Below, piece by piece: positions 16,541-37,900 of a DNA stretch of 46,290 nucleotides (positions are counted from its first letter, which is position 1; the number at the start of each line of letters is the position of its first letter). The DNA comes from Anaerolineae bacterium. Its GTDB lineage: Bacteria; Chloroflexota; Anaerolineae; CG2-30-64-16. The DNA lies in NCBI GenBank assembly GCA_025454635.1, contig JALOOB010000013.1, positions 1-46,290 of the forward strand, given 5' to 3'. Both the position numbers and the translations under genes were made by a program. Below the pieces are notes generated by a model. It ran no database searches, was not told the origin of the DNA, and worked only from the letters and a program-made list of their open reading frames with translations.

Positions 16541-17725
16541 TCACCCCTCGTACCCAAACCGCCACGCCGCTCCGTTCATCGGCACGTCGGCCAGGCGGCT
16601 GCGCCGCAATGCTGCGAACCGCGGCAGTTGCTCCTCAAGGGAGTCCCCGCCCAACTTCTCCAGGAGCGCACCGGCAATCACCCACGCGGCCATTGCCTCG
16701 CCGATGACCACCGCGCGCGGGACGGCGGAGAAGTCGCTGCGTTCGTACTTTGTCGGCGCGGGCTCACCGGTGGCGAGATCAACCGACATGAGCGGGGTCA
16801 GCGTGGTGCTGATCGGCTTCATAGCGATGCGGAGCACGATGGGCTCGCCCGTGGTGACTCCGCCTTCGAGGCCGCCGGCGCGGTTCGTCTTGCGCTGAAG
16901 GGCGCCGTCTTCGCCGAGGACAATCTCATCGTGCACCTGCGTGCCTCGCAGGCGGGCATTGGCGAACGCAGTGCCGATTTCCACGCCCTTCATCGCCTGG
17001 ATGCTGAGCATGGCCGCGGCGAGCCGCGCGTCCAGTTTCCGGTCGAAGTGGACGTGCGAGCCGAGACCGGGCGGCGCGCCGAGGATGACCACCTCAAAGA
17101 CCCCGCCAAGCGTGTCCTTTGCCTGCATCGCGTCCCAAATCGCCTGACGCATGGGTTCGACCGCGGCGGCGTCCGGGCAGCGCACATCATTTTCCTCGGC
17201 TGCGGCGAAACGCTCAGCATATGGCATGCCGGTGGGCAAGGCGGCCTCGACTTCTCCGATACTCGTGACATAACCGCCGACCGCGATGCCGAACTGCGCG
17301 AGGTACTTGCGGCATATAGCGCCGGCCGCGACCCGCATCGTCGTTTCGCGCGCGCTCGCCCGCTCCAACGCAAGGCGCAGGTCGCGATAGCCGTACTTGA
17401 TTGCGCCGGTGAGGTCCGCGTGGCCGGGCCGCGGGATGGTCATCGGGGGGATGTCCTTCTCGGCCCACGATTTATAGTCGAGGTTGGGCACTTCGAGCGA
17501 GATCGGCGCGCCGGTCGTTAACCCGGCGGCGATACCCGCAGTGATGCGGACGCTGTCCTTCTCGATCTTCATGCGCCCGCCCGCGCCGTAGGCCACCTGC
17601 CGCCGCGCGAGGTCGCGGTCGATGTCGTCGGCGCGTAGTGGCAGCCCGGCGATCATGCCTTCGAGGATCGCGGTGAGCGATGGACCATGGCTCTCGCCGG
17701 CAGTAAGAAAACGGAGATTGCTCAT
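16541..17725 (-). CDS. aroC: Chorismate synthase
   Basis: MSNLRFLTAGESHGPSL..., RPGHADL, GRSSARETA-like and GGxxGG motifs. The start shares one nt with the GNAT stop (TGATG). Confidence 0.95.
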   Translation of the reverse strand: MSNLRFLTAGESHGPSLTAILEGMIAGLPLRADDIDRDLARRQVAYGAGGRMKIEKDSVRITAGIAAGLTTGAPISLEVPNLDYKSWAEKDIPPMTIPRPGHADLTGAIKYGYRDLRLALERASARETTMRVAAGAICRKYLAQFGIAVGGYVTSIGEVEAALPTGMPYAERFAAAEENDVRCPDAAAVEPMRQAIWDAMQAKDTLGGVFEVVILGAPPGLGSHVHFDRKLDARLAAAMLSIQAMKGVEIGTAFANARLRGTQVHDEIVLGEDGALQRKTNRAGGLEGGVTTGEPIVLRIAMKPISTTLTPLMSVDLATGEPAPTKYERSDFSAVPRAVVIGEAMAAWVIAGALLEKLGGDSLEEQLPRFAALRRSRLADVPMNGAAWRFGYEG

Positions 17726-18336
17726 CAGGTGGTTAACCCCGGTGGTTCATACGTATCCGCAGCGGGCGCGTGAGCGTATCGCACGCCGACCACCTGCATC
17801 CACTCCGGCTCGGGCAGGGGGTTGCGGGTGAGTGTCATGCCCGCCTTGAGCATGACGGCCTGCGACGCGTGGTTATCGTGTTCGGTTGTGGCGAGGATGC
17901 GCCAGAGCCGCAAATGGTCGAACGCGAAGGCGATGAGCACCCGCGCAGCCTCTGTCGCGTATCCGCGACGCTGCCGCACCGGGTCGATGGCCCAGAACAG
18001 GCCGATCTCCGGCGTCATCTCCCCCGCCATGGATGGTCCGGGCGTCCGCGTCAGCTCGGGGATCTGGTCGAAGGGCATGAGCAGGGGGACGTAGCCGGCC
18101 GCGCCGATAACGTCGCCGGTCTCGCGCAGCGCGATTGCGCGGTCGCCGTAAGGGGGCTGGCCCATGCGCGGGAGCCACTCGGCGTTGAGTTGGTTCCACT
18201 CGAGCCAGGTCCCGCGCTCGGCCAGCGCGCGGGGCGCGTCGGCCTCGTTCGAATGGAACGCCTCGCGCAAGATGCGGTGGATCGTGGGGAGGTCGTCGCG
18301 TCCGAAAGGTCGTATCACCAATCGCTCAGTCGTCAA
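17725..18336 (-). CDS. GNAT family N-acetyltransferase (RimJ/RimL-like)
   Basis: MTTERLVIRPFGRDDL...RQRRGYATEAARVLIAFAFD...HDNHASQAVMLKAGM. TTG start. Confidence 0.8.
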   Translation of the reverse strand: MTTERLVIRPFGRDDLPTIHRILREAFHSNEADAPRALAERGTWLEWNQLNAEWLPRMGQPPYGDRAIALRETGDVIGAAGYVPLLMPFDQIPELTRTPGPSMAGEMTPEIGLFWAIDPVRQRRGYATEAARVLIAFAFDHLRLWRILATTEHDNHASQAVMLKAGMTLTRNPLPEPEWMQVVGVRYAHAPAADTYEPPGLTT

Positions 18337-18592
18337 TTCGTCCAGCTAGCTCTCCTTGCGCATCCTGTTCGTCGTCGCAGCGCACGCAGTTCAACTCGTA
18401 GCCGAGAAAGCGCGCCCGGCCCTCCGGCTCCAACACCCACGAGCGGAATCGCAGCGGCGGGTTGTGGCGCACATGCTGTCCGTGCCCGCACGCCAGCTCC
18501 GCCACCCAGTCCCCCTCGTCGTCCTGATGCCAGCCGATGATGGGTTGCTTCACGACTCCTGTCCAATGCCTTTGTATCGCTGCGCCGGGCAT
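18326..18592 (-). CDS. DUF3565 domain protein
   Basis: IIGWHQDDEGDWVAELACGHGQHVRHNPP motif recalled for DUF3565. Overlaps the GNAT start by 11 nt. Confidence 0.65.
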   Translation of the reverse strand: MPGAAIQRHWTGVVKQPIIGWHQDDEGDWVAELACGHGQHVRHNPPLRFRSWVLEPEGRARFLGYELNCVRCDDEQDAQGELAGRIDD

Positions 18593-18600
18593 GTTATCAT
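18572..18600 (+). promoter_or_regulatory. Promoter for the MNT/HepT pair (TTGTAT - 17 nt - TATCAT with TGt extended -10)
   Basis: ttgtat at 18572-18577, 17-nt spacer, tgt+tatcat at 18592-18600. Overlaps the 5' end of the divergent DUF3565 gene. Confidence 0.4.
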
Positions 18601-18653
18601 CATCGAAGACCTACGGCAAGGGCATTGTTGCCTCCTTGCGCAGGAGGGAGGGC

Positions 18654-18971
18654 ATGATCAACCGCAACTTTGACTGGCCGATGGAGCAGATCCGAGCGTT
18701 CTGCGAGCGATGGAAGATCACCGAACTGTCGGTGTTCGGGTCGGTGCTGCGCGACGACTTCCGGCCGGACAGCGACATTGATTTGCTCGTCTCCTTCGCG
18801 CCGCATGCGGGATGGAGCCTGTTTGACCTCGCTCATATGGAAGAGGAACTTGAGCAGATGCTTGGGCGGGACGTGGATCTTGTCACTCGCCGCGGGCTCG
18901 AGCGCAGCCGCAACTACCTCCGCAAAGCGGCCATCTTCGGCAGTGAGGAGCCAGTCTATGTCGCGGGATGA
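18654..18971 (+). CDS. mntA: MNT-type nucleotidyltransferase antitoxin
   Basis: AGGAGGGA before the ATG at 18654. FGSVLRDDFRPDSDIDLLV nucleotidyltransferase motif. Confidence 0.85.
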   Translation: MINRNFDWPMEQIRAFCERWKITELSVFGSVLRDDFRPDSDIDLLVSFAPHAGWSLFDLAHMEEELEQMLGRDVDLVTRRGLERSRNYLRKAAIFGSEEPVYVAG

Positions 18972-19296
18972 AGTTGTGCTCCTGGACATCGCTAACGCCT
19001 GCGAAAACATCGCCGAGTTTATTCGCGAAATGGACTCTGCTGAGTTCTTCGACGACATCAAGACTCAATCTGCCGTGATGCATCAGATCCTTGTCATTGG
19101 CGAAGCCGTCAAGCGTCTTTCGCCCGAATTCCGCCAATTCCATGCCGAAATCCCGTGGAAAGATATGGCGGGCATGCGCGACAGGCTCATTCACGACTAC
19201 GACAACGTGGATTTGGACCGTGTTTGGGATACCGTAACTGAGAGTCTGCCGGCCCTCTTGAAGCAGATTCGGCCATTTATTCCACCTCCCCCTTAA
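18958..19296 (+). CDS. hepT: HepT (DUF86/HEPN) toxin
   Basis: The ATG at 18958 overlaps the mntA stop by 14 nt. R-x4-H HEPN motif in MRDRLIHDYDNVD. Confidence 0.85.
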   Translation: MSRDEVVLLDIANACENIAEFIREMDSAEFFDDIKTQSAVMHQILVIGEAVKRLSPEFRQFHAEIPWKDMAGMRDRLIHDYDNVDLDRVWDTVTESLPALLKQIRPFIPPPP

Positions 19297-20373: not shown

Positions 20374-21591
20374 CTACTCCCATTTTATCTGCGCGCCGAG
20401 CTGCCGCATGGCCTCGACAAAGCCGGGGAACGAATCGTTGATCGCCTGCGCACCCTTAACGATTGTCGGACTGTCTGCGACGAGACCGGCGACCGCCAGC
20501 GCCATGGCGAGGCGGTGATCGCGGTGGCACTCGACCTCCGCGCCGCGCAACTTGACCGGCCCGGTGATCGCCATGCCGTCGGGACGCTCCTCGACCTTTG
20601 CGCCCATCTTGCGCAGTTCCGTCGCGACCGAGGCGATGCGGTCCGATTCTTTCACGCGGAGCTCGGCTGCGTCGCGTACGATCGTCGTCCCCTCCGCCTG
20701 GGTGGCAAGGACGGCGAAGATGGGGAACTCATCAATGGCGCGCACGACAGTGTCGCCGGCGACCTCGACCGCGTGGAGGTCCGCGTGGAGAACGGCCAAT
20801 TCTCCGACCGGCTCGCCGACCCCCTCTGTGTCCTCGGCACTCTCCGAGATCCCCAAATCGTACGCCTGCGCCGCGACCCCGCCCATCTCGAGCAGCAGGT
20901 CGAGCAGGCCCGTGCGCGTTGGGTTGAGGCCAACGTTGGCGAGCGTGACGCGCGAGCGCCGCACGATGGTTGCCGCCACCAGCGGGAACGCGGCCGATGA
21001 GAAATCGCCGGGGATAATCAATGGTCGCTTGCCCCCCGCGCAGCCGCACGATCGGCCCATCCGTCTCCACCTCTACGCCGAACCAGCGCAGCATCCGCTC
21101 GGTGTGGTCGCGCGAGGGACCGGGCTCGCGCACGGTGGTCTCGCCCTCGCCAAACAGCGCCGCAAGCAGGATAGCTGACTTGACCTGCGCGCTGGCGACT
21201 GGCAGGGTGTAGTCGATCCCGCGCAGGTTGCCCCCCGTGATGGCCAGCGGCGGGAATCTGCCGCCGTCCGCGCCGTTCACGGTGGCGCCCATGAGGCGTA
21301 ACGGCTCGGCCACCCGGCCCATGGGGCGCCGGCGCAGCGGTTCCGTCCCGTCGAGCAGGCGCATCGTCGTGCCGGACCCCTCGCAGAAGAGCGTCCCCGC
21401 GGGCGGGGTGAGCGCCCGCAGGCCCTTGCCGCGGACGCGCAGAACACCTCAGCCGGCACCCAACCCTCGACGACCGTTTCGCCCCTGGCAAGGGGCGCGA
21501 GCATCAGCGCGCGGTGCGTGATGGACTTGTCGCCGGGAACGGCAACAGTCCCGCGGAGGGGGCCGGAGGGATGGATGATGAGATCGGACAT
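20374..21591 (-). pseudogene. aroA: EPSP synthase split over three frames by two lesions (or two sequence errors)
   Basis: N-terminal piece [48 protein letters not shown] (frame of ORF 21277..21591). Middle piece [31 protein letters not shown]...ASAQVKSAILLA...SRDHTERML (frame of ORF 20732..21364). C-terminal piece IIPGDFSSAAFPLVAA...KESDRI...HRDHRLAMA (ORF 20374..21060). Confidence 0.85.
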
Positions 21592-23741: not shown

Positions 23742-24989
23742 CTACTCGTTTGCCGCGGGGTAACTGCCAAGCAGCTTCAGGAACGCGGTGCGCGTCAGCA
23801 GGCCGAGCAGCGCGCGGTTGATCGTCGCGTCCTGCCAGTGGCCTTCCAGGTCGACGTAGAAGACATAGTGCCACGGGCGGTTGCGCCGTGGGCGGCTCTC
23901 GATTTTGGTCAGGTTGATGCTGCGCGTCGCCAGCTCGCCGAGCACGTGGTAAAGCGCGCCTGGCGTGTGCATCGTGGCGAAAACGATGCTGGTCTTGTTG
24001 ACCTTTGCGGGGGGCGGCTCCTCCCGGCCGAGCAGGAAGAAGCGAGTGGTGTTATCCGGCGAGTCCTCGATGCCGGCGTCGAGCACTTCCAGGCCGTAGG
24101 TTTCGGCGGCTAGCGCGCTGGCAATGGCGGCCGTGCCGGGCTGCGGATCGGCGGCAAGGTCTTTCGCTGCGCCCGCGGTGTCATAGGCGACGATGGCTTC
24201 CCACCCACGCGTGCGGAGGTACCGTTCGCACTGGGCGAGGGCCTGGTAGTGCGAATGGACGCGCTTGATTTCGGACTGCTTCGTTCCCGACGGAGCGAGC
24301 AGGCAGTGGCGCACGCGGAGCTTGACCTCGCCCACGACGCGCAGGTCGTGGTCAAGGAGCAGGTCGAATGCCTGGTTGATCGAGCCTGCCTGCGAGTTTT
24401 CCACCGGCAGCAAGCCGAGGGTGGCCGTGCCGTCCTCGACCGCGCGGAAAACGTCCTCGAACGTAGCGCACGGCACGGTGTTCACCTGACGGCCGAAGTG
24501 CTGGAAGATGGCTTCCTGCGAGTAGGCGCCCGGCTCGCCCTGGAAGGCGACCGTGCGCGGTGACTCGACGCGCGCCTTGCCGTTGCTCTTGGGCTCCTCA
24601 ACGACCGGCGGCTCAATGGGCGTGAACTCGGAGCCGATGTCCGGGCGGAGCGCGACCGCGCCCCGCAGGTAGATGTGGCGCACGTCGTAGATGGGGCGCT
24701 CAGTGTTCCAGTGGATGAGCGTGCGGACCGTGCGCGGCAAGCCCTCGTTGGTCTCAATTTCGACCGCGGAGAGCAGGGGGACGTGATGCCAGCCGAACTC
24801 GCGCGCGGCGCGGGCCGGGAACGCGGCGTTGAGGTCAGGCGTGACGGTGAAGATGGCGCTCGCGACATCCTCCGGGCTGACCCCGTTCGCCGTGACGATC
24901 GCAGCGAGCAGTTCCTGGGTGGCGGTGAGAATTTCCTCGACGGTGTTGGCGGCCACGGTGGTGGCCCCGCGGATGCCTCGAACGGCCAT
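23742..24989 (-). CDS. pheA: Fusion of AroH-class chorismate mutase with prephenate dehydratase and ACT domain
   Basis: GGAGGAG 3 nt before the ATG at 24989. [12 protein letters not shown]...[20 protein letters not shown] resembles B. subtilis AroH. Then [15 protein letters not shown]...TRFF...ESRP (PDT plus ACT). Confidence 0.9.
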
Positions 24990-25040
24990 GATCTCCTCCA
25001 GATGTAGGTCGGGGGTCACGCTCACCACCAAGAACCCAAG

Positions 25041-25105
25041 ACATTAAGTTTCACGAAGCTTGCTAAGCCCTTAGTGAACCTTTGGTTCATTGATTCTTAG
25101 TGGTG
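25041..25105. repeat. Weaker AT-rich repeat-containing spacer (CTTAGTG/GCTAAG units, tgaacc-ttt-ggttca hairpin) between the attenuator and pheA
   Basis: cttagtg occurs twice, its near-complement gctaag occurs once, and there is a small hairpin. Less regular than the other elements. Confidence 0.3.
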
Positions 25106-25131
25106 ACCGGCTCCTTCCGGCGACGGACAAT

Positions 25132-25163
25132 AAAAAGAGCGTGGAAGCTGGGCCTCCACGCTC
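25132..25163 (-). terminator. Intrinsic terminator in the aromatic-operon leader (attenuator terminator)
   Basis: Minus strand GAGCGUGGAGG-cccag-CUUCCACGCUC (11 bp including one G-U) followed by UUUUUAUU. About 140 nt upstream of the pheA ATG. Confidence 0.75.
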
Positions 25164-25188
25164 GGCTAATCTTGGCTGGACTCTGGCG

Positions 25189-25290
25189 TCATTGCTTCAG
25201 CGGCAAACCTGTTCCAGCCGGCGGGGGGCAAAGCCGGGGCGGGCTGGAATAATAAAAGTAGAAGCTCGCGCCGCTGAGCAGGTAAAGCAT
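25189..25290 (-). CDS. Candidate leader peptide MLYLLSGASFYFYYSSPPRLCPPPAGTGLPLKQ (33 aa) with five consecutive Phe/Tyr codons
   Basis: AAGAGG 9 nt upstream of the ATG at 25290. Codons UUC UAC UUU UAU UAU at 25263-25249. UGA at 25191-25189. Lies between a consensus promoter and a terminator. Confidence 0.6.
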   Translation of the reverse strand: MLYLLSGASFYFYYSSPPRLCPPPAGTGLPLKQ

Positions 25291-25331
25291 CTTTAGCAGC
25301 CTCTTGAAGTGCGGGTCACAAGATGGGCGGG

Positions 25332-25360
25332 ATGATAGCGCGGTTTTCGAGGTTTGTCAA
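25332..25360 (-). promoter_or_regulatory. sigma70-type promoter of the aromatic operon (TTGACA - 17 nt - TATCAT)
   Basis: Reverse complement of 25355-25360 is TTGACA. 17-nt spacer. Reverse complement of 25332-25337 is TATCAT. Confidence 0.6.
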
Positions 25361-25447
25361 GCCGCGAAAGCGCCGCGCCATCCCGAACTTTGAGCGAGAG
25401 ACGAATTGGCCGCAGTGTGAACGAATCGCAGCGATGAAACCGCTCAC

Positions 25448-25504
25448 CAAAGACCTTCGAGGGTGACCTCAGCTTCGGTGAAGGTCAAAACCTCGAAGGT
25501 CTGG
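25448..25504 (-). terminator. Terminator-like nested hairpin downstream of the M1 peptidase gene
   Basis: Perfect 12-bp inverted repeat agaccttcgagg (25451-25462) / cctcgaaggtct (25491-25502). On the minus strand it is followed by TTTGGTG (weak U tract). Confidence 0.45.
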
Positions 25505-25522
25505 CAGCGGTTGCGCGCAGCT

Positions 25523-26932
25523 TTAGTCGATCGCGGGTTCGCCCATCTTGTTCAGCCACTCGTCGAACCGCGCGGACAACTCCTGCCCGCTGACTTCCTC
25601 TGCAACGGCGATGAACTCCTCCGAGCTTGCCGTCCCATCGCGGTAGCGTTCGAGATACGTGCGCAGCAGCTTAAAGAAAGCCTCTTCGCCCACCTGCTTG
25701 CGGAGCGCGTGTATGACGAGCGCGCCGCCAATGTAGGGCTCGTCATTATAGAGTCTGTTCGCGCCAGGATCGCCCACGGGCGCCGTAGCCTGATACGCAT
25801 CCGCATAGACCTTGGCAACCTTGTCGAGCGTCTGGAGGTCCCTTTCGCGCGTCTGCCAGAGCCACTCGGCATAGGTGGCCATGCCTTCCTTGAGCCACAC
25901 ATCCTGCCATGCTTCCAGACTGACGCTGTTGCCGAACCACTGGTGAGCGATCTCGTGCGCAATGACATCGGCTGCGGCGGAAGGCAAGGAGGGGCACAAG
26001 ACGACCAATTCGTGCTGCTCGGCTCCCCCAATGGACCCCGCGCACAACGGGTGCGCGTCGCTCGCAATGACGGAAGCGTACGCCTTGAAGGGGTAAGGGC
26101 CAAAGAGGCTGCTGAAGTAGGCGATCATCTCCGGAGCTTTCCGGAAATGCGTCCTCTGGCCTTCATAGTATTCCGGAGGGAAGTAGTTGCGGATGACGAC
26201 GCCGTTCGGGCCGTCCAGCGTCTCGACTTCATATTGACCGACGTTAACGGATGTCAGATAGGTAGTAGTGGGTTGCGCGGATTCAAAGATGAAACGCGTG
26301 CGGTCGCCGAGGTCGCTTTGTTCCCGCGGCTCGCCGGAGGCGACGACAATCCAGGGCTTGGGCACCGTGACCTCGAACCGGAACGCCGCCTTATCGCGAG
26401 GGTGGTCGTTGGCGGGGAACCAGCCGCGCGCGCCGCTTGGCTCGTTCATCGCGTTGATGGAGCCGTCCGTATCATGCGCCCAGCCCAGCCCTTCGCTGCC
26501 GTACACGACATCCGGCGCAGGGCCGGGCTGACCGTGATAGCGGATGGTCACCGTGAAGTCTCGGCCCGCGGTGAGCGGGCGGGATGGCGTGAGGAGCAAC
26601 TCGGCTTGCTCCTGCTCGAATTTGGCGGCGTTCCCGTTGACCTGCGCTTCGTCGATGGTGAGGCCGGTGAAGTCGAGGTAGAAGGCCCCTAGCTGTTCGG
26701 TGGCGATTGCTTCGATCCGGGTTTCGCCGGCGACCGTGTTGCTCTCCGGCAGGATGTCGAGCGCGATGACATAGCGCTTGACGTCATAACCGCCGTTGCC
26801 CAGGGCGGGGTAGTATGAGTCGCCCGACGTCGACGGCCCCACCACCGCGGGCAGCGACTGCGCGCAGCCCGACAAGATCGCGAGAACGAGAAACGCGGCG
26901 CTGAGACGCGCCGTTGTTAGCCGCCTGCTCAT
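25523..26932 (-). CDS. M1-family zinc aminopeptidase, lipoprotein
   Basis: GGAGGA before the ATG at 26932. Lipobox LAILSGC. HEIAHQWFGN ... WLKEGMATY (HExxH-18-E). Confidence 0.85.
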   Translation of the reverse strand: MSRRLTTARLSAAFLVLAILSGCAQSLPAVVGPSTSGDSYYPALGNGGYDVKRYVIALDILPESNTVAGETRIEAIATEQLGAFYLDFTGLTIDEAQVNGNAAKFEQEQAELLLTPSRPLTAGRDFTVTIRYHGQPGPAPDVVYGSEGLGWAHDTDGSINAMNEPSGARGWFPANDHPRDKAAFRFEVTVPKPWIVVASGEPREQSDLGDRTRFIFESAQPTTTYLTSVNVGQYEVETLDGPNGVVIRNYFPPEYYEGQRTHFRKAPEMIAYFSSLFGPYPFKAYASVIASDAHPLCAGSIGGAEQHELVVLCPSLPSAAADVIAHEIAHQWFGNSVSLEAWQDVWLKEGMATYAEWLWQTRERDLQTLDKVAKVYADAYQATAPVGDPGANRLYNDEPYIGGALVIHALRKQVGEEAFFKLLRTYLERYRDGTASSEEFIAVAEEVSGQELSARFDEWLNKMGEPAID

Positions 26933-34918: not shown

Positions 34919-37900
34919 TTAGCGCACGATCACGACATCTCCTGCGCTGCGCCCGAAGGTCTCAGGCGCGTACATTTCCTCCGCCTTCGCCGGCGGGACC
35001 ACGAAGCGGCCGGGGGTGGTGGCGCGGGCGACGTAGCTGTACTCGTGGACACCTTCCCAAAGGGTGGTTGCGAACGCCTCCGCGCGCTGGTCGCGGAGGT
35101 TCTGGTGGTTGTACCACGGACCCCACCACCACCAATACCCCATTGGCGAAGGTTCGTTCGGGTTCTGGTCACGGGGCAGGGTGGCTGTTGTTGCCAGCGC
35201 CGGATTCAGCGCCTCCAGTCCGGCGGGCAGGGGGTCGGCCAGCGCGACATGGTATCGCCGGGCCGGGTTGACCATCGTCAGCTTGACGCGCACCCGCGCG
35301 CCCGCCTTGATGATCCAGTCTCCGTTGTCGTCCTGGGTCACGTCGCCCAGGTCGTCCACTGCCTCATAGGTGCGCATCACGGTGAAGCCTGCGTCGTAGG
35401 GCGGCAGATCGAGGTCGCGCGGCGCGTAGCGCATGCCGAGCCGGTAGTACAGCCGGCCGGGTCCCTCCTTCTGCAGGATGATGTTCGCGGCCGCGCCTCC
35501 GGCCGGCACCTGCTGCGCCACCACGTCCATCGGCACTTCGATCAGCTGGTAGTCGGTCGTCCGCCCGCGGAACTCCGTCGAGCCCGCGTATGTCTCGCCG
35601 AGCCAGGCGCGCGCGACGAAGTCGGGCGTAACGGCCTCGTAGGTGTTGAAGTAGCGGTCGAGCGCAAGCAGGATGAAGACGTTCTCCTGCGTGTTCGACC
35701 ACCGGCCGCGCGTTGCGCCGCCGAGCAGCCCCGCGACGAGTTTCGGGATCAGGTCGGAATCGGGCGTATCGCCGATCATCGCATCGAGGATGACTCCGTC
35801 GCCGCGGCGATCTGAGTAGAGGATGACATAATCCTGATCACCGTAGTCCGCCGCGAAGTGGGCCGCGCCCGCAGTCTCCGTCACGCGGTTCAGCAGGTGG
35901 CGGCGGATCTGCTCGACTTGGGTCCGGGAAGCCGGATCGTCCGATAGCACGGAGAGCAGCCAGCCGATCGCCTCGGGCTGCAGCTTTTCGAGCGTGGCGT
36001 CGGCCAACAGCTTGCGCGCCTTGGCCGCGTCCTTGTCGCCCATCAGGTTACGCACGTTCAAGGCGTACGCGCTCAGGGTGTTGCGGATCGACTGATCGTA
36101 CCAGTAGGGGTACTTGCTCTCCACGTCCACGAGGTAGCCACGCGCCGCGTCCAGCATTTCCTGTGGCACCGCATAGCCCTTCATCTTCGCGCGCTGGAGC
36201 GCGTTAGCTGCGTGGATGGTGTGGTAAGGCCACGACTCTTCGCCGCGCTTCCAGAGGGGGAAGCCGCCGTCCGCGTTCTGCATGGCCTGCAGCCGCTCGA
36301 TATCGCGTTTCATTGCCGCTTCGATCTCAGGCGCCGGGGGCAACCCCTGCGCCTGGAACGCGGTGAGCACGTCGCGCAGCGCGGCCACGGCCAGAATGCG
36401 CGAGGCAAGCTGCTCGGAGCACTCGAACGGGTACGCGACCAGGTAGAGGAACGCATCCGTGAGCGACTGGAGCGCGGTGCTCGACGTCTGGATTTCCAGC
36501 CCGCCAAACTGCGTGTACACGCCCGAAGGAGCGATGACCGGCTGGGCTACGGCGCTTTGCGCCGCGCCGTCGTCGATGACGCCATAGGTCGCGAACGCTT
36601 CGGTCGTGGCGGGCGTGTAGACGGGCAGCGCGGCGCTCGCCGCGTCGGCCCATTTGCCGGAGGCCGCAGCTACCTGGAAGCGCGCAGTGCCCGACGTGAG
36701 CGTCGTCGCGGGGAAGCGAACCTCCACGCGGTCGTTCGCCGGCACGGTGACGCGCTTGCCCGCGCCTTCCGTGAGCAGCAGGTTGGCCGTTTGCAGCGCC
36801 ACGTCGACCGTCAGCGGCGCGTCGGTTTGATTCTGCACGACGATGGGCAGCTCGAAGCGGTCGCCAAAGTTGAGGAAGCGCGGCGCGGACGGGCGCACCA
36901 TCAGCGGCAGCCGCGCGGTGATTGCCGATGCGCCCTTGCCGAACTGCTGCCCGCCCGCAACCGCGACGACCATGACGCGGTAGCGCGTGAGGTTATCGGG
37001 CACCTTCACCGCAACGATCGCGCGGCCGTCCGGCCCCGTGGGCACGGCGGGCTCCCACGCGGCGAGCGGGTTGAAGTCCGCGCGAACCGCGATGGGGGTG
37101 TCGGGCTGCTGCGCGGCCGACTGCGCTTGCGCGGGCGCCATCGTTGCGGCCGGCATAGGCGCAGCGGCGGGCGCTTCCATCGCCTTTTCCATCTCCACTG
37201 CGCCGGCTGCGGTGTCATCGTTGGCCGCGGCGCGCGCCGGGTCAGCATCCAGTGTGACCGGGCTGGCGAGCACGATGTAGCCGCGGTTGTGGCTGTCCTG
37301 CATGTCCGACCCGCGCTCGGTGTACATCGCGGTCAGCGGATCGGGCAGGTCATAGCCGGTGAGCGCGAGGATGGACTCGTCGACCACGGCGATGGCAAGC
37401 TCGGCGTTCGGCACAGGCTTCCCGTTCGCGTCCGTGACGAGGACTTCGACCTCGGTGGTCCCACCCGGCTCCAGCTTTTCGGCCGCGGGCTGCGCCTCAA
37501 CGGTGAGCGCGCGCGCCAGCGGCGGGACGCTCAGGTTGATTTCCCCGCGCGCGAACGCGGGCCGCCTGGGCAGGTCGGTGCGGCCCGCACCGCCCGGATC
37601 GCTCTGCTGGTCGCCCGAGCGGTCCGCCGCGCCCACGAGGTCGACCTGCGCGAAGAGGTTCGGGACGTAGCCTTCTTCGATTGGAATGCGCAGGACGGCA
37701 GACGGCTCATTCATCGTGAAGCGGACGGTCTTCAGCAGGCCGCTGCGACGCAGGGTCAGCACGCCCTCCGCGGGAACGAACGGCGCCTGGACGAGGATCT
37801 CAGCGGTCTCGCCCGCGCGGTATTCCTTCTTGTCCGGCACGAGCGTGATCTCTTCCTGCTGCACGCCGCGCTGCGGGATGCGCTCGCCGCCGGAAACCCA

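Follow-up and report, generated by a model that had tools for sequence, protein, structure and literature searches.

The window, as we call the whole 46,290-nt stretch analysed here, covers positions 1–46,290 of contig JALOOB010000013.1 in the metagenome-assembled genome of an Anaerolineae bacterium (Chloroflexota; CG2-30-64-16; GCA_025454635.1). Its minus strand, to which the window coordinates below refer, carries genes of aromatic amino acid biosynthesis assigned by Pfam. The first of them encodes a fusion of an AroH-type chorismate mutase, a prephenate dehydratase and an ACT domain (CM-PDT, 24989–23742), and it is followed by genes for a DAHP synthase with an FXD/ferredoxin-like N-domain (DAHPS, 23653–22640) and the prephenate dehydrogenase TyrA (22509–21655). 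Upstream of the CM-PDT gene lies a leader composed of a promoter, a short open reading frame (ORF) with a run of Phe and Tyr codons, and an intrinsic terminator. This leader, a candidate ribosome-mediated attenuator, is the subject of the present analysis.

The promoter is of the sigma-70 type, with TTGACA at 25360–25355, a 17-nt spacer and TATCAT at 25337–25332. It matches the consensus at 11 of 12 positions, is the sole such site within 24000–26500, where 0.3 would be expected, and predicts a transcript start near 25325. A Shine–Dalgarno sequence, AAGAGG (25305–25300), precedes by 9 nt the ATG at 25290, which opens a leader ORF of 33 codons, MLYLLSGASFYFYYSSPPRLCPPPAGTGLPLKQ (25290–25189; UGA stop at 25191–25189). 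The ORF contains five consecutive aromatic codons, UUC UAC UUU UAU UAU (F Y F Y Y, 25263–25249), which we propose as the site of ribosome stalling, and no UGG (Trp) codon. Further downstream, the arms GAGCGUGGAGG (25163–25153) and CUUCCACGCUC (25147–25137), the loop CCCAG and a U5 tract (25136–25132) form an intrinsic terminator of −21.0 kcal/mol. The terminator motif is present in a single copy in the window and in a single copy in each related locus, and the leader as a whole folds more stably than its shuffled versions (z = −2.9). All of these elements, and the complementary boxes described next, had been pointed out in a preliminary description made from the sequence, and our analysis confirmed every one of them, including the 11-bp terminator with its U5 tract (25163–25132).

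Several segments of the leader transcript can pair with one another. Segment 1, CUCAGCGGC (25278–25270), is the outer one. It lies immediately 5′ of the aromatic run and pairs, in the ribosome-free minimum free energy (MFE) fold, with segment 2b, GCCGCUGAAG (25204–25195), which lies by the stop codon and is its partner in the terminated state. Box 1, UUCCAGCC (25249–25242), is placed immediately 3′ of the run as an anti-antiterminator arm, and its partner is box 2, GGCUGGAA (25219–25212), in the ORF tail. The ORF tail also contains segment 2, GCCCCCCGCC (25229–25220), which together with box 2 makes up the putative switch strand. Alternatively, box 2 may pair downstream, either with box 3, UCCAGCC (25180–25174), shortly past the leader stop, or with segment 3, which comprises UUAGCC and the terminator 5′ arm GAGCGUGGAGG (25169–25153) and can pair with CCCCCGCCGGCUGG (25227–25214).

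The leader turned out to be widely conserved. We collected 80 genomic loci around CM-PDT homologues, all metagenome-assembled and all from Anaerolineae, Caldilineales or unclassified Chloroflexota, and, for 74 orthologous CM-PDT genes (48–92% protein identity), searched the preceding 500 nt for a short ORF with at least five aromatic residues among six consecutive ones. Such an ORF preceded CM-PDT in 65 of the 74 loci. Of 1380 other 500-nt segments taken from these loci, one contained such an ORF, and none of the 370 shuffled sequences and none of the 74 reverse complements did. Clearly, the mini-ORF and its aromatic run are kept in relatives, which was one of the checks put forward in the preliminary description. 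Within the window, just one further short ORF has five or more aromatics in six residues (~34919–35143, MGYWWWWGPWYNHQ...), and it resembles the C-terminal portion of a longer gene rather than a leader peptide. As this sole counterpart looks like a gene end, and as the ORF, promoter and terminator are kept together in ~70 related genomes, the aromatic run cannot be put down to chance.

The composition of the run varies among relatives (FYFYY, YFFFYY, FYYFYF, YYYFYF and WRGFYFGYF are examples). Family-wide, Phe accounts for 216, Tyr for 186 and Trp for 14 of the 505 run codons, and every synonymous codon is used. This near-equal use of Phe and Tyr codons suggests dual sensing, as far as codon counts can tell. 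The aromatic run is flanked by an in-frame start and stop in ~70 relatives.

Further parts of the leader were compared in the 71 loci that were analysed in detail. A terminator with a U-run was present in 71 of the 71 leaders (−14 to −29 kcal/mol), starting 20–40 nt (median 27) past the leader stop. The promoter, TTGACA with a near-consensus −10 element (score 9–11), was found in all 66 leaders tested; the same score was reached in 43 of 650 control windows. In close relatives GAGG occupies the same place as in the leader of the window. Each locus had one copy of the whole element, which invariably came immediately before CM-PDT on the strand of that gene. DAHPS followed CM-PDT on the same strand in 65 of the 67 loci with enough sequence, and TyrA in 51 of 64. 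Only two loci with ample flanks (L050 and L057) were devoid of an aromatic leader and terminator, and these two also had no DAHPS downstream of the PDT gene, which suggests that the leader travels with the CM-PDT–DAHPS arrangement.

Homologous leader ORFs were found in L001, L022, L002 and other loci, and close relatives have the entire peptide in common. As the ORF also comes with its own promoter, Shine–Dalgarno sequence, start and terminator, we considered whether its product is a small hydrophobic peptide with a function, such as one in the membrane or in signalling, with the hairpin serving as the terminator of this gene, and CM-PDT expressed from a second promoter or by readthrough. Several observations speak against that. 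Across the class, the peptide is kept only at the aromatic run and at the stretches that coincide with RNA helices, its length ranges from ~29 to ~68 residues, and the RNA of its coding tail shows covariation with the terminator arm. Moreover, the element is single-copy and invariably found immediately ahead of CM-PDT on the same strand, and the variable stretch that separates the terminator from CM-PDT showed no conserved promoter. We therefore regard the small-peptide explanation as extremely improbable.

The alignment of the leaders revealed a layout of four segments: segment 1 by the run, segment 2 in the ORF tail, and segments 3 and 4, which are the 5′ and 3′ arms of the terminator. Family-wide, segment 1 reads GGCGCGG or GGCGUGG, and segment 2 reads CCGCGCC, CUCCACGCC, GUCCCACGC or CGCCARCCCGCG. 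The best partner of the terminator 5′ arm was located 3–23 nt past the run, and within the ORF in 70 of 71 leaders. Segment 2 and the arm change together from one type to another (GUGGAGC/GCUCCAC, GUGGGAC/GUCCCAC, GGUUGGCG/CGCCARCC), and in L045 the match between them extends over 15 nt.

We quantified the pairing in an alignment of 68 leaders (A3), made by MAFFT without regard to structure, using 500 shuffles and controls in which the partner was slid. The antiterminator helix 2:3 was paired in 81.1% of alignment cells, against a shuffle mean of 73.3% and 27–59% with slid partners, and showed 67 compensatory changes, against 30.2 in shuffles; neither value was reached by any of the 500 shuffles. 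Its covariation score, 0.290 as compared with 0.177 in shuffles, was also reached by none of the 500. The terminator helix 3:4 was paired in 98% (shuffle mean 92.3%, slid 32–73%) with 30 compensatory changes against 8.5, again with 0/500 shuffles reaching either value. An additional hairpin upstream of the run, helix 0:1, which is present in a subset of leaders, was paired in 64% (shuffle mean 55.2%, slid 34–41%) with 36 compensatory changes against 23.3 (0/500 for both). Thus, covariation backs both the terminator and the antiterminator helices class-wide. The preliminary description had not found an antiterminator that overlaps the terminator. Such a structure does exist: it consists of the ORF-tail segment and the terminator 5′ arm, whose pairing covaries throughout the family. 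In a further comparison, in which ORF tails were matched with the arms of other subclades, they preferred their own arm (0.65 versus 0.53 of the maximum); this swap test is noisy and fails for some types, that of the window included, and is supportive only.

The subclade to which the window belongs is represented by 17 leaders (alignment A2), which are short (~33 codons) and contain extra boxes. Its predicted terminated state, composed of segment 1 paired with 2b, box 1 paired with box 2, and the terminator, was paired in 83%, versus 36–52% with slid partners. The antiterminated state, in which segment 2 pairs with the arm, and box 2 with box 3 or with the AGCC that abuts the terminator, was paired in 83–85%, versus 32–45%, and the antiterminator with segment 3 included in 82.8%, versus 32–45% in the slid controls. 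As the same columns serve both states, the two structures are mutually exclusive. Among the individual helices, that of segment 1 with 2b was paired in 68.6%, with four compensatory pairs (for example CACACC:GGUGUG in L003), that of box 1 with box 2 in 82.7% of the 17 leaders, and that of box 2 with box 3 in 89.8%, with one compensatory change, GAUUGG/CCAACC, in L021. A further compensatory change in the same leader is GAUU:AGUC.

The idea, put forward earlier, that a single box has three competing partners could be kept only in part. Boxes 1, 2 and 3 are indeed conserved and complementary in the subclade. The proposed third partner, CCAGC in the loop and 3′ arm of the terminator (25151–25147), is not conserved: relatives have CCAAGC, CUAGC, AUCAGC or GCAGC at this place, and we rejected it. 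A pause dependent on EF-P at the PPR..PPP stretch of the leader peptide had been suggested as well. This stretch is found in the closest relatives only, others having APAPAG or SPAPAG instead, and it seems to be a side effect of the C-rich RNA segment 2; hence the pause has no comparative support.

Constrained folding of the leader of the window gave results consistent with two alternative states. With no ribosome, the terminator formed, and segment 2 was sequestered in the hairpin of box 1 with box 2 (−18.6 kcal/mol). When a ribosome was placed at residues F10–F12 and the terminator 3′ arm was excluded, the best fold was a continuous helix of CCCCCGCCGGCUGG (25227–25214) with UUAGCC-GAGCGUGGAGG (25169–25153). 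This predicted antiterminator helix has 14 bp with three 1-nt bulges and is better by 5.5–12.6 kcal/mol than a free 5′ arm. The partner of box 2 that extends the antiterminator may be either the adjacent AGCC or the UCCAGCC past the stop (box 3). Mutually exclusive structures, which had been named in the preliminary description as a check, were thus found both in the window and in its subclade.

Several observations weigh against the reading of the leader as an attenuator. Family-wide, helix 1:2 is complementary but does not exceed its shuffles: it was paired in 72% (shuffle mean 71.2%, slid 36–53%, value reached by 43/500 shuffles), with 17 compensatory changes against 14.5 (reached by 114/500). 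RNAalifold recovered the terminator alone from the subclade alignment, and a tetramer resembling a Shine–Dalgarno sequence was found in just 44 of 71 leaders. An MFE test with ribosome masking and dinucleotide shuffles, which we ran on 71 leaders, was non-discriminating in these GC-rich sequences: the terminator stayed in the MFE structure in most leaders, and the fraction in which the 5′ arm was paired upstream was 0.77 as compared with 0.61 in shuffles. For that reason we replaced this test with the analysis of covariation. In the window itself, the core pairing of segment 2 with the arm, at −12.1 kcal/mol versus a family median of −15, ranks with the weakest ones and includes a C–U mismatch and an A bulge. 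The terminator state is also stabler than its alternative by 10–17 kcal/mol even with a stalled ribosome, so the switch must be kinetic. The same holds for the trp attenuator of E. coli, where the terminator is also the thermodynamically stronger helix and the choice is kinetic. Finally, a ribosome at the stop codon of the window leader leaves segment 2 uncovered, as this segment ends 21–29 nt upstream of the stop, and therefore termination in the replete state depends on the re-forming of the box 1:box 2 pair.

Two of these observations, the recovery of the terminator alone by RNAalifold and the lack of covariation in helix 1:2, would also fit a factor-dependent riboregulator, in which a protein or an uncharged tRNA (T-box-like or TRAP/PyrR-like) binds the GAGCGUGGAG stem or the leader RNA, and the aromatic ORF is incidental. 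The near-invariance of the terminator stem across the class, unusual for a plain terminator, points in the same direction, but where the stem does change, segment 2 and the 3′ arm change too; the stem is conserved because it must match both of them. Additionally, an incidental ORF would hardly keep, in ~70 lineages, an aromatic run that shares its frame with a start and a stop codon while the remaining peptide drifts, nor would segment 2 always lie within it at a fixed spacing between the stop and the terminator. Rfam models gave no matches at the gathering threshold in the whole window, and at E ≤ 10 the region 24900–25500 gave a single match, a spurious RNaseP_arch fragment in the start of the CM-PDT coding sequence. 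No family covers the leader, which rules out a T-box and the known leader families. No array of GAG/UAG repeats of the kind bound by TRAP was seen either. Altogether, a riboregulator of this type seems very unlikely.

Ribosome-mediated attenuation in response to Phe and Tyr, as initially suggested, has withstood the examination of conservation, Rfam matches and folding. The leader has the hallmarks of an attenuator: a short ORF past a promoter, a cluster of cognate codons, a terminator before the first gene and a mutually exclusive antiterminator, with segment 2 inside the ORF and the stop codon 20–40 nt before the terminator. On these grounds, it is very probably a classical ribosome-mediated attenuator that senses the supply of Phe and Tyr and controls the CM-PDT–DAHPS–TyrA operon. 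The mixture of Phe and Tyr codons fits an operon that makes both amino acids and their common entry enzyme.

The following course of events can be envisaged, in which we infer the translation of the leader ORF, the stalling at the run codons and the kinetic nature of the switch. Transcription would begin at about 25325, and a ribosome would start on the 33-codon leader. With Phe-tRNA and Tyr-tRNA plentiful, this ribosome would pass the FYFYY codons and reach the UGA, and behind it box 1 (UUCCAGCC) would re-pair with box 2 (GGCUGGAA), locking segment 2 away. The terminator (25163–25137, with U5) would then form, and the transcript would end near 25132. If either of the charged tRNAs is scarce, the ribosome would stall on the run and cover segment 1 and box 1. 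Segment 2 and box 2 (25229–25212), left free, would capture the emerging UUAGCC-GAGCGUGGAGG (25169–25153), and box 3 may help to initiate the pairing of segment 2 with segment 3. With the terminator 5′ arm occupied in this way, RNA polymerase would continue into the genes of CM-PDT, DAHPS and tyrA.

Leader-peptide attenuation is a textbook mechanism documented mainly in Proteobacteria, in some Actinobacteria and in a few other groups. The proposed attenuator resembles pheL-pheA and pheM-pheST of E. coli in that a run of aromatic codons within a short ORF precedes alternative terminator and antiterminator structures, and its target (CM-PDT) is partly the same. The pheL and pheM leaders, which are from Gammaproteobacteria, are essentially Phe-only, whereas half of the Anaerolineae run is Tyr, and the operon additionally includes DAHPS and TyrA. 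The similarity to the E. coli trp attenuator lies in the four segments that can pair as 1:2, 2:3 and 3:4, with the regulatory codons by segment 1. In contrast to trp, segment 2 of the Anaerolineae leaders is within the leader ORF and the stop codon is between segments 2 and 3, the anti-antiterminator arm of the window subclade (box 1) is 3′ of the regulatory codons, and the distant branch of the family has the additional 0:1 hairpin.

The preliminary description knew of no mixed Phe/Tyr leader that governs a whole aromatic supraoperon in a non-proteobacterial-looking genome. A precedent is aroR of Corynebacterium glutamicum, a leader with Phe-Tyr-Phe before the aroF (DAHPS) operon, whose attenuation was shown experimentally (Neshat et al. 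2014, summarised in PMC11802643). According to that summary, ribosome stalling raises the readthrough, the effect being seen with Phe limitation only (PMC11802643). The claim of novelty was therefore overstated. Compared by description, as it is given in the summary, aroR and the Anaerolineae leader are functionally analogous, each being a mixed Phe/Tyr leader before a DAHPS operon in a non-proteobacterium. Unlike aroR, which has a run of three codons and comes from another phylum, the Anaerolineae leaders have runs of 5–13 codons, and the first gene under their putative control encodes the AroH-CM/PDT/ACT fusion, followed by DAHPS and TyrA. Another similar case is uORFC-13-1, a predicted upstream ORF with Phe codons by an intrinsic terminator before aroF in Acholeplasma, known from comparative genomics only (PMC8632094). 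The likeness consists in a predicted Phe upstream ORF and a terminator ahead of a DAHP synthase gene; the phylum and the motif are different, uORFC-13-1 having at least one Phe from a U-run (PMC8632094) and the Anaerolineae leader a long mixed F/Y run. A survey from 2005 listed no Phe/Tyr RNA elements in Actinobacteria (PMC1262725). We found no earlier description of attenuators in Chloroflexi or Anaerolineae in the literature searched, whose coverage was incomplete, so that this is weak evidence of absence.

The view that the leader is a class-wide Chloroflexota example of a known attenuation logic, and that it involves no new regulatory principle, is well supported by the comparison of sequences. 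With ~70 independent lineages carrying it, the leader is a candidate for a new RNA/upstream ORF family and offers a regulatory annotation for the CM-PDT–DAHPS–TyrA operons of many metagenome-assembled genomes. It would also be an indirect sign that the coupling of transcription to translation in this little-studied phylum is tight enough to permit attenuation. Additionally, its natural variants, which differ in leader length and in whether they have the upstream hairpin, form a series suitable for studies of attenuator evolution.

The upstream hairpin is a feature of the more distant, Caldilineales-like leaders. In ~30 of ~52 of them, a strong covarying hairpin, CCGCGCC...GGCGCGG (−15 to −22 kcal/mol), is located just 5′ of the run (columns 17–42 of A3; L026:2696–2760, L053, L066–L068, L036, L039, L045 and ~25 other loci) and ends exactly at the UUUUAUUUU codons. 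Since the hairpin stops at the very point where these codons start, they may at the same time provide the U-tract of a signal within the ORF that resembles a terminator or a pause site. The leaders of the window subclade have no equivalent hairpin 5′ of the run, the median hairpin energy there being −5.6 kcal/mol.

Both the U-richness of the regulatory codons and the presence, in these ~30 distant relatives, of a strong pause- or terminator-like hairpin ending exactly at UUUUAUUUU raise the question of whether the leader ORF reads something other than tRNA charging. It could act as a checkpoint of translation coupling, or could sense UTP at the U-rich run, as in pyrBI. We consider this improbable to a high degree. 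The operon yields Phe and Tyr and no pyrimidines, and the identity of the run codons is limited to Phe and Tyr. Within this limit UUC and UAC are freely used, so U-richness alone is not what is kept. Moreover, the window subclade does without the upstream hairpin.

If tRNA charging is sensed, as we prefer to think, the distant branch might possess a two-checkpoint variant of the attenuator, in which a first terminator or pause signal has the run codons as its U-tract, and the downstream terminator is the second. We put this forward tentatively and with considerable doubt. In such an arrangement, the first checkpoint would hold or abort RNA polymerase on the regulatory codons until the ribosome arrives, and the second would read the charging of tRNA. 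Another peculiarity, shared by ~35 distant loci (WRGFYF), is that a UGG (Trp) codon is conserved in frame, two codons ahead of the aromatic run; this codon is also part of RNA segment 1 (UGGCGCGG). It may be kept either for Trp sensing or for pairing alone. The codon could add Trp sensing to the two checkpoints, in which case the DAHPS step, common to the three pathways, would be controlled by Phe, Tyr and Trp alike.

In the window, 142 nt (24990–25131) separate the terminator from CM-PDT, and this spacer includes the Shine–Dalgarno sequence of CM-PDT, GGAGGAG (24999–24993). It is ~100 nt longer than the spacers of relatives, which in most close ones have 20–60 nt, and its sequence is unrelated to theirs and unconserved. 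The extra sequence may be an insertion. A hairpin, UGAACCaaaGGUUCA (25089–25075), was noticed within it.

On the other side, the gene upstream of the leader encodes an M1 peptidase and ends at 25523. Shortly past its stop, an 11-bp inverted repeat, GACCUUCGAGG (25501–25491) and CCUCGAAGGUC (25462–25452), is followed by UUU on the minus strand. The repeat (25452–25501) is probably the terminator of the M1 peptidase gene, which would insulate the promoter of the aro leader from upstream transcription.

Downstream of tyrA, the genes for EPSP synthase (aroA, 20374–21591) and shikimate dehydrogenase (aroE, 20275–19277) were assigned by Pfam. We found no strong internal minus-strand terminator within the operon, and aroE is preceded by weak promoter-like sites. 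While the genes for CM-PDT, DAHPS and TyrA are the predicted targets of the leader, it is uncertain, judging from these signals, whether its control would reach past tyrA to aroA and aroE. The aroA gene is broken in frame: consecutive parts of the Pfam profile are found in three overlapping ORFs (frames 1, 0 and 1), and part of the conserved core is seemingly missing. This gene may be either a pseudogene or the result of an assembly or sequencing error in the metagenome-assembled genome. Past aroE, three genes unrelated to aromatic biosynthesis (17725–19061) follow on the same strand, namely an ORF with no Pfam match (19061–18600), a gene for a DUF3565 protein (18592–18326) and one for a GNAT acetyltransferase (18336–17725), the last two assigned by Pfam. 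Beyond the GNAT gene, the minus strand carries the gene for chorismate synthase (aroC), also identified by Pfam.

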